Virus record (IMG/VR): IMGVR_UViG_3300028591_000124
Coordinates: 1 to 64,000 of that record
Reading direction: 5' to 3' (one strand)
Source of the DNA: a virus
Taxonomy: Duplodnaviria; Caudoviricetes
Length of the DNA stretch: 64,000 bases
In this document: piece by piece, positions 30,317 to 33,044 of the stretch
Layout of the letters: every line of letters starts with the position of its first letter
Numbering within the stretch: position 1 is the first letter of the stretch
Program-made: the position numbers and the translations under genes
Notes under the pieces: generated by a model
The model's database searches: none
The model's input: the letters and a program-made list of their open reading frames with translations, nothing else
Told to the model about the DNA's origin: nothing

Positions 30317-30835
30317 TTATTGTTGCGGATTATTAACCTCATAATTTTTACGAGCTTGCTTAGCCCAGTCCATCACTAAATCGTGGTATGAATTATCAGT
30401 TGCAGAATATGGCCGTTCCAATATCCATTTGTTTATACGATGTTTCTCACGAATAATATGAGACTTTATCCTGGAGCCTTTTGTGCTTGCGATGTTTGCA
30501 TCGCTCAGTGTTTCCAGAACCGGATTGCTGTCACACACAATTCTGACTATAACACCCTTTGGCATCTTTGCGAGGACGCTCCAGATAGACATCAGACAAA
30601 GTTCAAAATAACTCTTTCCGACAAATACTTTGCATTGTTGCTGAGTCTCGCCAGCTTTGTTAATGATACAGTATGAAGCAGCACCGGTTGACGGTACACG
30701 TTTTAGATTTGCTGAGTAACCAATGTATGCAATATAGTTCGGCTCACCTATTGAATCTCCAAATGTCTTATATCTTCCCATTCTTTTTGATCTTTGATTT
30801 CTTATATTCTTGATATTGTTTTCTCTCTTGTGCAT
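30317..30835 (-). CDS. RNase HI-like fold protein, apparently catalytically degenerate
   Basis: GAASYCII, LMSIWSVL, VRIVCDS, terminal helix DWAKQA match RNase HI topology; only the CDS Asp is retained. Confidence 0.6.
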   Translation of the reverse strand: MHKRENNIKNIRNQRSKRMGRYKTFGDSIGEPNYIAYIGYSANLKRVPSTGAASYCIINKAGETQQQCKVFVGKSYFELCLMSIWSVLAKMPKGVIVRIVCDSNPVLETLSDANIASTKGSRIKSHIIREKHRINKWILERPYSATDNSYHDLVMDWAKQARKNYEVNNPQQ

Positions 30836-31370
30836 TCATTTGGCGTTTGTATGGTCTGAACAACATCTTCCCTACAGGGATCACGCCACATTCCATTAGG
30901 CAGCTTTCAAAACTTAAAGGGGAATAAGCGATACCATTTGGAACACGAATAACCTTAATGCCGATATTTGAAAAATCCCTGTCTCTATTTGAATCATAAA
31001 CAATTGCATTTATGTTCTGGTGACTACGGCCATCAATCTCAATAGCGGTCTTTATAGATGGAATGTAAAAATCCAGAAAATAAGGTTTTCCGTGAATGCA
31101 AAATGGTGCCTGGTGAAGAAAATTTATTTTATGGCCTAACATTACACCAAAAGCCATCAACTCATAAATATTTGCTTTGTCTTGGAGCTCACACATATTT
31201 GTGAGTATCCAGTCACGCCTATGTTCTGGAATAAATCTTATTCTCGTTTGAAGTTCATCGGATGTGAATTTTTGCGCATTGTATGATACCAAAGTACGCC
31301 TAAGAAGATTGTAATACTCTGGACTATTTATCCGATACTCTTGATTGTTGATTTTATAAAAATACGGCAT
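30768..31370 (-). CDS. DUF559/Vsr-like PD-(D/E)XK endonuclease
   Basis: FLHQAPF, YFLDFY, AIEIDGRSH, DSNRD, GIKVIRVPN. Confidence 0.85.
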   Translation of the reverse strand: MPYFYKINNQEYRINSPEYYNLLRRTLVSYNAQKFTSDELQTRIRFIPEHRRDWILTNMCELQDKANIYELMAFGVMLGHKINFLHQAPFCIHGKPYFLDFYIPSIKTAIEIDGRSHQNINAIVYDSNRDRDFSNIGIKVIRVPNGIAYSPLSFESCLMECGVIPVGKMLFRPYKRQMNAQERKQYQEYKKSKIKKNGKI

Positions 31371-31467
31371 AACTCCATCTTTTTAAGTTGGGAATTATGC
31401 CCTGATTCAATTACACACAATTTCGTGATTTTTGGCTGGGTGGCCACATTATTTTTTTAATAAATGC

Positions 31468-32017
31468 CAGAACTACGGAGAGCTGACAATTCCTCTATAG
31501 CGAGGTGTCGTATCGCTCCGAAAGTTCTGCTCATTATCCCGTTACGTATTCGGGAAGAAGTCAACCATTTATGCCATTTACTGACTTCCGAGCGAGACTG
31601 AAGACGCGGAATCATACGTCCTGTCCGTCTAAACCGTACTGGAACGGTTGTCTCAGGGAGCTATTAGGAATCCAGTCCTTCTGCTTCGCCGTGCTCCCGA
31701 TTGCGAGTGGTTAATTCGCAACCCAATCCATTGGCGTGGTGCATTGCTACTAAACACCTCTCGTTCATGTCCGAGTGCCGTCATCGCGCCGAGACTATAC
31801 TGGGATCTCTCATTTTCCAGATATAGCTATGCTACATGAACAAAGTCCACTTCCCAATTTAGCACCCCTGTTGCGCCCGTATAGGGTAGTCGTAATGCGT
31901 CAGGACTGTTTTTGTCAGAGCACCTTACTATCAAGCGACCCAAGTTCAGTGCCATCTGCCAGTTCTTTGAAATTATCGGGTTTTGGAACTGGTAGCCCAA
32001 TATCGGTGGCCTGACTG
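31468..32017 (+). ncRNA. Large (~550 nt) highly structured non-coding element (RNA or ssDNA)
   Basis: Back-to-back helices, GC-richer than flanks, no credible ORF; G-U wobbles favour the + strand. Confidence 0.55.
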
Positions 32018-32019
32018 TA

Positions 32020-32145
32020 TAAAAACAATTATGGCCAAGTAGCTTAATTTGGGACCTACTACTTGACCATTCGTATTTAGAGCGGGAACAACTCCCGACA
32101 GTTAAATCAATATGTCCGTCGTTAGAGGTCCCAATCCTAACTACG
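32020..32145 (-). promoter_or_regulatory. Leader RNA with kissing-loop potential and terminator-like hairpin
   Basis: Hairpin loops TTGGGACCT and AGGTCCCAA are complementary; U-rich tract after the second hairpin. Confidence 0.55.
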
Positions 32146-32185
32146 GGTGCAAAGGTAAAAATTAAATTTGAAACTAAAAAATATT
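32145..32185 (-). promoter_or_regulatory. Leftward Bacteroidetes promoter
   Basis: TACCTTTG on minus strand at 32157-32150. Confidence 0.75.
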
Positions 32186-32428
32186 TTTTAAATTTTTAAG
32201 AATTATTTTTTGAAATAGTTCGTAACTACTTGAAACAAAGACAGTCACAAAACAAATTCCCCATATATATTATATATTACCTATTAAAATACGTGCGTGT
32301 GCGCGTGAAAAAGTGGCTGCGCAACATCTATAAAATCTTATTTGCGTACTAAATCCACATAACTCTGGAAAGTCTGATTTTCAAAGAGATAGTATTTTTT
32401 AATATGAATGTTAATACGAATTAACACG

Positions 32429-32470
32429 AAATATTTTTTAGATGCGAAAATAATTAGTAAATTTGCACCC
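32429..32470 (+). promoter_or_regulatory. Rightward Bacteroidetes promoter of replication operon
   Basis: TAAATTTG at 32458-32465. Confidence 0.75.
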
Positions 32471-32525
32471 AGAAATCAACGAAAAGTCAAATTTAGAGCT
32501 ATATAAACCCTAATATGAAGCAAAG

Positions 32526-33044
32526 TTGATTAAGAAGCACGGCAAGATTAAGGTTGAAGGAGGAGTCCTTTACCGACGGGAGCTGGATGAGGCCCTTGAC
32601 AAGCTTCCCGATGACGAATATCTTTTCGTCTTTGCCAACAAGGACAAGAACAGGGCAATGAACAAGCTTTCATATCTACACTCTGTTGTATTGAGGACGA
32701 TAGCCGAAGAGCTTGCTGAGCGCAACCCGGACAAAGAGCCGGTAACACCTTCACAATTATACAGGTATTTCGAAGAGATCTTCGCGCCGATTCATACCTG
32801 CGTAATTAACAATGAGAAGTTTGAATACTTTGACCTGAAATCGGAATCGTCAGCTGAAATAGGGGCAGTAAGTGAGAAAATTGCCCAGTATGTTGAGAAG
32901 AAATGGGGAATACATGTTCCAACCGAAGATGAATTAAATTCGGAACCATACTACAAGACATACGCCGAAGCCTATCTCAATCAGTGGAAAGGCTATTGGT
33001 CAGAATTTTTATCTCGTCGTAAAGAATTAAAAAAAGATGAGTGA
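32526..33044 (+). CDS. NinB/DUF1367-like recombination protein
   Basis: YLHSVVLRTIAE, KWGIHVP pattern; first gene of recombination operon. Confidence 0.45.
   Translation: MIKKHGKIKVEGGVLYRRELDEALDKLPDDEYLFVFANKDKNRAMNKLSYLHSVVLRTIAEELAERNPDKEPVTPSQLYRYFEEIFAPIHTCVINNEKFEYFDLKSESSAEIGAVSEKIAQYVEKKWGIHVPTEDELNSEPYYKTYAEAYLNQWKGYWSEFLSRRKELKKDE

Follow-up and report, generated by a model that had tools for sequence, protein, structure and literature searches.

The DNA analyzed here, called the window in the following, comprises the first 64 kb (64,000 nt) of an IMG/VR virus record of 112,402 bp that is rated complete. The largest ORF-free gap of this genome extends from 31371 to 32525 and is flanked by a DUF559 gene on the minus strand (30768-31370) and by a plus-strand operon starting at 32526. 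It holds a stretch of 550 nt (31468-32017) which an earlier note had flagged as an ornate non-coding structure. The locus contains the following features:

30768-31370, minus strand: DUF559 gene with a Vsr-like endonuclease fold (Pfam PF04480, E 1.9e-06)
31371-31415, minus strand: conserved stretch of 45 nt preceding the DUF559 start codon, 93% nucleotide identity to sister phages
31416-32145, minus strand: replaceable cassette of 730 nt (leader plus non-coding body), delimited by comparison with a second record and two sister phages
32018-32149, minus strand: leader of ~130 nt with 5' hairpins, a terminator-like stem and a U-tract, outside the flagged interval but inside the cassette
32150-32190, minus strand: leftward promoter, consisting of an AT-rich upstream block and a -7 box (TACCTTTG) at 32157-32150

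The flagged stretch had been described as GC-richer than its surroundings and devoid of a credible ORF, and we observed both. No ORF longer than 79 aa occurs between 31371 and 32525, and none of the single stop-codon reassignments tested on the gap opens a frame. The GC content amounts to 0.49-0.53 over 31500-31900 compared to 0.34-0.37 in the flanks and 0.416 genome-wide, so that the element lies 8-10 points above the genome. The search for protein relatives took in one open frame of 106 aa (31830-32147, minus strand): using phmmer against 1.84 billion protein representatives, the sole relative found was the same element carrying a one-base frameshift, and the frame is not conserved. A pseudogene of a protein was rejected on the same search, which returned just this frameshifted element. 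An 87-aa entry of a public protein collection (P0001) stems from a strain variant, where a spurious gene was called across the leader and into the element; relative to the window it switches frame via a 1-nt indel.

Searching the whole window against Rfam 15 at the gathering score yielded four tRNAs and nothing else, while a search of 31200-32500 at E ≤ 10 gave two chance-level matches (snoR28 and D12-methyl). The Infernal comparison suggested in the earlier note thus assigns the flagged stretch to no Rfam family, be it at the gathering score or at E ≤ 10. A group I or group II intron was considered and rejected, as Rfam gave no such match at the locus and the minus strand has no coding sequence between promoter and element that could represent a 5' exon. 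No DNA match to the element was found in GenBank phages. Scanning IMG/VR, JGI metagenomes and GTDB genomes with peptide patterns returned near-identical copies only, and all known copies of the window-type element are near-identical.

Divergent promoters and the leader

For comparison we retrieved 80 related loci by alignment of the SbcD-like protein. The closest cultured relative in this search is Bacteroides phage BS-TP1 (PQ571274; described in PMC12694917) with 46% identity, whose rightward operon is annotated as encoding NinB, SbcD, SbcC, RuvC, a sigma factor, DnaB helicase and primase. About 20 of the related loci have the same divergent promoter pair as the window, with the same motif and spacing at the syntenic site.

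In the window, the two promoters (32145-32186 on the minus strand and 32429-32470 on the plus strand) form a 42-nt inverted repeat of 79%, and each of them consists of a AAATATTTTTTAG-type upstream block plus TAnnTTTGCACCC. The minus-strand promoter claimed at 32150 was confirmed by its Bacteroidota-type -7 box, which we assigned on the basis of the Bacteroidota -7 consensus TAnnTTTG; the plus-strand twin of this box is located at 32458-32465. Leftward transcription would start near 32149-32143. Boxes similar to TACCTTTG also stand before tRNA genes and at other intergenic sites of the genome. As a side observation, many unrelated short contigs from four ruminant metagenome runs match just the 45-nt AT-rich promoter stretch 32144-32188 (80-85% identity), with unaligned ends to its left and right. 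A repeated phage promoter was rejected as the cause of this pile-up because the motif is not repeated in the genome; the contigs probably carry similar promoters of other phages or hosts.

Downstream of the leftward promoter, the terminator-like stem of the leader comprises 13 bp (32070-32058 with 32043-32031) and is followed by the U-tract at 32028-32018. Within the terminator loop, 9 nt (32057-32049) are exactly complementary to a segment near the 5' end (32134-32126). The 132 nt of the leader fold with a z-score of -4.23 on the minus strand, and none of 200 shuffles folds equally well. Nearly all related loci examined have a leader of ~125 nt ending in a hairpin and a U-run. In 13 of the 17 sequences searched, a 5' segment (a) has an exact complement of at least 7 nt further downstream in the leader (a'); in 10 of those leaders the distances from the start are 9-18 for a and 88-106 for a', and the sequence differs per lineage. 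This layout is kept in most related phages whatever cargo follows, protein-coding cassettes included. The leader is the better-supported structure of the locus, although it lies just outside the flagged coordinates; the lineage-specific pairing of its terminator loop with the 5' segment makes it a candidate for an RNA-controlled early switch.

Leaders of early operons that mediate RNA-based immunity are found in satellite phage P4 (CI RNA) and in phages P1 and P7 (c4 RNA). The likeness to these systems consists in an untranslated early-operon leader with lineage-specific complementary segments that are coupled to termination, the pair covarying between phages. However, it concerns the 130-nt leader and not the flagged body, and a second or third copy of the segment is missing downstream: we searched the body for further copies of the leader's complementary segments and found none.

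Folding and strand of the flagged stretch

The earlier note had tiled the flagged stretch with eight helices, all of which are indeed complementary when read from the sequence:

31468-74 with 31523-29: complementary
31557-63 with 31582-88: complementary
31594-98 with 31650-54: complementary
31656-61 with 31693-98: complementary
31701-08 with 31714-21: complementary
31763-70 with 31834-41: complementary
31899-904 with 32010-15: complementary
31956-65 with 31986-95: complementary

G-T wobbles were likewise confirmed at 31707/31715 and within 31956-65/31986-95. The exceptional folding deduced from these helices was not borne out. We calculated a folding z-score of -2.19 for the 550 nt on the plus strand (3 of 100 shuffles fold equally well) and of -1.56 on the minus strand (8 of 100), compared to a mean of -2.0 (sd 1.15) for nine ordinary stretches of this genome (605 nt each). 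The body therefore folds at the level of the genome background, as do the elements of related phages (z -2.4 to -2.9), and thermodynamics gives no support for an exceptional structure of the body. A stretch of 701 nt (31440-32140) reaches z-scores of -5.2 (plus strand) and -5.6 (minus strand) in 20 shuffles, mostly because of the leader outside the flagged interval. What had been seen as an ornate fold consists of chance-level helices; the sequence is real, but its structure was over-read.

The G-U wobbles had been taken as an argument for the plus strand. We counted 22 G-U pairs in the MFE structure of the plus strand compared to 27 in that of the minus strand, and mirroring the structure of each strand onto the other one costs about the same energy both ways. 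Neither MFE, mirrored energies nor alifold counts discriminated between the strands, and placing seven strain substitutions on the MFE structures added no information. The minus strand is favoured over the plus-strand reading by the promoter, by the leader and its U-tract terminator, and by the orientation of the related elements.

The replaceable cassette and its neighbours

Next, we compared the locus with close relatives. In a second phage record 31441-32280 is identical to the window (0 differences), whereas the flanks differ at 12 positions. Two sister phages keep the flanks 31371-31415 and 32146-32525 at 93-97% identity, and in place of the cassette they carry two minus-strand ORFs of 306/316 aa (a winged-helix protein) and 106/113 aa. 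The right boundary of the cassette is the presumed transcription start, and on the left it ends where 45 nt remain up to the DUF559 start codon. These 45 nt are the 3' end of the 106/113-aa ORF of the sister phages (last 23-31 residues in tblastn); at the left junction the small ORF is interrupted, with its last 23-31 codons remaining, which suggests that the non-coding cassette arrived later. The element has no similarity to the ORFs of the sister phages and thus does not represent a decayed copy of them. At the left edge of the cassette a plus-strand terminator-like hairpin with a T-run (31433-31446) is directed into the element; no plus-strand gene ends there.

The metagenomes that yielded contigs with the stretch come from the guts of sheep and cattle (14 studies). 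No RNA run is among the sequencing runs listed for it, and one run that was guessed to be RNA gave contigs of low-depth pieces only. In four runs the strain variants differ by less than 2% in the element, by ~10% in the DUF559 gene and by ~1.6% in the right flank. The right flank being about equally conserved, the strain identity of the element could reflect a recent cassette sweep rather than constraint.

The alternative cargo is represented by the following ORFs:

L005:3073-3993, minus strand: winged-helix protein
L005:2756-3076, minus strand: small ORF
L016:2476-3459: related winged-helix protein at the cassette site
L095:1468-2553: related winged-helix protein at the cassette site

The winged-helix protein measures 306-380 aa in sister and related phages, and the small ORF accompanies it only in the closest ones. 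In L016 and L041 it stands behind the leader and is homologous to the 306-aa sister protein (E 2e-38 for L016). By contrast, no winged-helix homologue is encoded anywhere in five genomes (complete or near-complete) that have the non-coding element. Since BS-TP1 and four other relatives that are devoid of a leftward cassette are also devoid of the winged-helix protein, neither cargo is essential. The ESM Atlas neighbours of the sister protein belong to HTH_36, HTH_24 and RepL-like clusters and are leads only (TM 0.44 for the structure match to the RepL-like cluster); comparing its AlphaFold model (pLDDT 61) to the PDB we found no match at E ≤ 0.001. It is a generic winged helix only.

These data bear on an explanation at the DNA level that the earlier note had offered, namely that it is a replication origin, or a site of initiation on a folded single strand, beside the replication and recombination module. 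The element is indeed located in a divergent control region just upstream of the genes for NinB, SbcCD, RuvC, DnaB helicase and primase, the sister phages have a DNA-binding protein with RepL-like neighbours at the site (a lead only), and the Watson-Crick covariation of hairpins in the related elements described below suits DNA as well as RNA. However, the element is replaced in the sister phages and absent from the syntenic site of BS-TP1, and the winged-helix protein, likewise missing from BS-TP1 and four other relatives, matches no solved initiator. No iterons were found at the locus. The GC skew, which had been named as a check, follows transcription and does not switch at the site. Because the cassette is dispensable, iterons are absent and the skew follows transcription, we regard an origin as very improbable.

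The primer RNA II of ColE1 is a structured transcript of ~550 nt which has its own promoter and is encoded near replication functions. The present locus resembles it in the size of the transcript, the dedicated promoter, the nearby replication functions and the RNase H theme of the earlier note; it differs in that the cassette is dispensable, an origin signal is missing and the 172-aa neighbour has no RNase H match. This neighbour is the "RNase H-like" gene to which the element had been tied. Its protein has neither a Pfam nor a PHROG match and no counterpart in the relatives, and the tie is not supported.

The same holds true for the functional tie to DUF559: the sister phages have DUF559 without the element, and most of the related elements precede other genes. 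DUF559 is found behind the element in the window, L021 and L020, while in L046, L057, L024, L051 and L079 the element is followed by a gene for a 66-aa membrane protein and DUF559 is absent. The linkage is thus sporadic. Compared to its copy in a sister phage the DUF559 protein is 54% identical, although the flanking genes of that phage are 97-100% identical. Judged from the sequence, the gene is probably a free-standing homing-endonuclease-like gene that neighbours the element without being part of it; its hypervariability may be that of a homing-endonuclease-like mosaic which settled beside conserved sequence.

Related elements and the nature of the body

In about ten lineages (phages of 100-115 kb) the leader is followed by 500-600 nt of GC-richer sequence without conserved ORFs. 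The layout common to them is a leftward TAnnTTTG promoter, a leader of ~125 nt with a covarying terminator pseudoknot and the non-coding element. Between subgroups the elements share conserved blocks in the same order, and indels between them break any reading frame. They are conserved as much as or more than the neighbouring genes (82-93% compared to 65-93% for L046/L057). None of them matched Rfam. Conservation is thus seen among the strains, and relatives have comparable elements at this site.

A hairpin equivalent to the first one of the window's body (S1) stands just behind the leader in 8 lineages, and its stem is different in each. In one subfamily we observed compensatory changes at 5 of 5 outer pairs, and the covariation score was reached by none of 500 shuffles; 96% of the cells are paired, and slid controls collapse. 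The hairpin of this subfamily is located as follows:

L046:3430-3466, minus strand: subfamily hairpin with a covarying outer stem (equivalents in L057, L051, L066, L034 and L116)

The 24-nt loop of this hairpin (CCAGCUUUGA...UUUCAAGCAA) is almost invariant, its outer stem covaries fully, and among the related elements it gives the cleanest structural signal. For the whole family MAFFT and RNAalifold yielded no usable consensus, because they set the conserved blocks out of register.

The body in the window contains the following features that can be compared to this family:

31468-31529, minus strand: terminal nested hairpin, followed by a U-rich run (31467-31459, minus strand)
31594-31762, minus strand: central part with an M1-like segment (31745-31762) and an M2-like hairpin (31701-31721, ACCAC in the loop)
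31921-31953, minus strand: block common with L028 (28 of 32 nt), at 197-229 from the promoter compared to 204-235 in L028
31959-31992, minus strand: S1, first hairpin of the body, with a 7-bp stem and a 20-nt loop ending in UUUCAAA

From these features and from its position we consider the window's element to be probably a strongly diverged member of the family. It is located directly behind the leftward TAnnTTTG promoter and a leader-terminator of ~125 nt, upstream of the NinB-SbcCD operon, which is encoded on the other strand, and like its presumed relatives it consists of 500-600 nt that are free of long ORFs and GC-richer than the flanks. One link is provided by the block shared at near-equal promoter distance with L028, a locus that carries the family core motifs M1 and M2. 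The local alignment score of this block is 37, whereas 60 dinucleotide shuffles average 21 and reach at most 28 (z 7.0), and a scan of IMG/VR for its pattern returned just two types, that of the window and that of L028. Further links are the S1-like hairpin, which has a UUUCAA-type loop at the right place, and the terminal hairpin, whose outer stem is identical in sequence to that of L028 while the two inner stems differ yet stay paired. Several of the related elements also end with a hairpin and a U-run on the same (minus) strand. In the central part, which also holds the helices 31656-61/31693-98 and 31594-98/31650-54 that recur in MFE structures, the resemblance to M1 and M2 was judged by eye, and searches with the nhmmer profile and with covariance model R1 gave no match. 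The profile, made from 15 relatives, found nothing in the window's genome at E ≤ 10. Covariance models R1 and R2 did not match the window's element, but both also miss accepted relatives: R2, built from the S1 subfamily, recovers this subfamily and one new lineage and misses the window, L020 and L028. Global alignment gave a z-score of 1.6 summed over 12 relatives in a test that is insensitive even between accepted members.

That no search model recovers the window's element from the family would also be expected if the body were non-functional filler, i.e. foreign or decayed DNA brought in with the homing-endonuclease-like neighbour, its helices arising by chance in a sequence of 50% GC. The background-level folding fits this explanation, and with its swapped cassettes and hypervariable DUF559 gene the locus represents a recombination hot spot. 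On the other hand, a protein remnant is not detectable, the copies are identical though their flanks diverge, and the GC content is raised relative to the genome. Furthermore, size, position and strand match those of the conserved elements in relatives, and the L028 block is significant. We consider filler unlikely.

Taken together, we lean towards the view that the flagged 550 nt represent the body of the 730-nt cassette, which would specify a minus-strand non-coding RNA belonging to a diverged member of the family. Transcription would start from a strong promoter, the leftward member of the divergent Bacteroidota-type pair, and its first product would be the structured leader of ~130 nt, in which the loop of the terminator hairpin can pair with the complementary 5' segment. 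Read-through would yield ~600 nt of non-coding RNA ending in the nested hairpin and the U-rich tail just before DUF559. We think that the body acts as an RNA, either in the form of a processed stable RNA or as an extended untranslated 5' region of the early leftward transcript, and its role would be accessory rather than essential.

The second of these forms leads to a purely cis-acting alternative, in which the terminator gates read-through into a long 5' untranslated leader and the body tunes the stability or translation of the downstream genes without forming an independent RNA. Neither in the window nor in the relatives is a separate promoter visible between the element and the downstream genes, so the leftward genes located there must be reached via read-through, and the terminator-like leader is conserved whatever stands downstream, which includes protein-coding cassettes. 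However, the downstream genes vary between lineages while the blocks of the element are kept, and several related elements end with a hairpin and a U-run of their own. In addition, block-wise conservation over 500-600 nt far exceeds the needs of known attenuators, and the absence of further complementary segments from the body speaks against an RNA immunity layout of the P4/P1 type. Such a cis-acting leader appears doubtful to us.

We are equally hesitant about the opposite extension of the favoured reading, according to which the ~600-nt body would be a discrete trans-acting structured RNA. It would then constitute a new class of large RNA in Bacteroidota phages of gut and rumen; its expression would be early, downstream of the pseudoknotted leader-terminator, and in function it would be interchangeable with the winged-helix protein found at this site in the sister phages. 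As one of two options the earlier note had named the size class of ROOL (RF03087) and GOLLD (RF01998); exceptional folding of this kind is not supported, the fold energy being at background, and an Rfam match is missing. The likeness to these RNAs comprises the size class of 550-800 nt, the carriage by phages and the lack of a known function; the rumen habitat, represented here by the sheep and cattle gut metagenomes, is also known for ROOL. In contrast to ROOL and GOLLD, the hosts are of Bacteroidota type and not Firmicutes, the fold energy is unexceptional, the element stands behind a promoter and leader and before genes instead of beside tRNAs, and no Rfam family was matched even at E ≤ 10 on the 1.3-kb region or in the relatives.

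Phage RNAs of comparable size for Bacteroides-type hosts were found neither in Rfam nor in the literature searched. Structured RNA candidates were predicted from IMG/VR intergenic regions (PMC10690425); they share the data source and the kind of object with the element, a likeness by description only, and the element family may be among them. If the favoured reading is true, an unannotated non-coding RNA family occupies a fixed control point in widespread Bacteroides-type phages of ~110 kb in the human gut and the rumen. The either/or relation with a winged-helix protein at one and the same site offers a direct handle on the function of the element.
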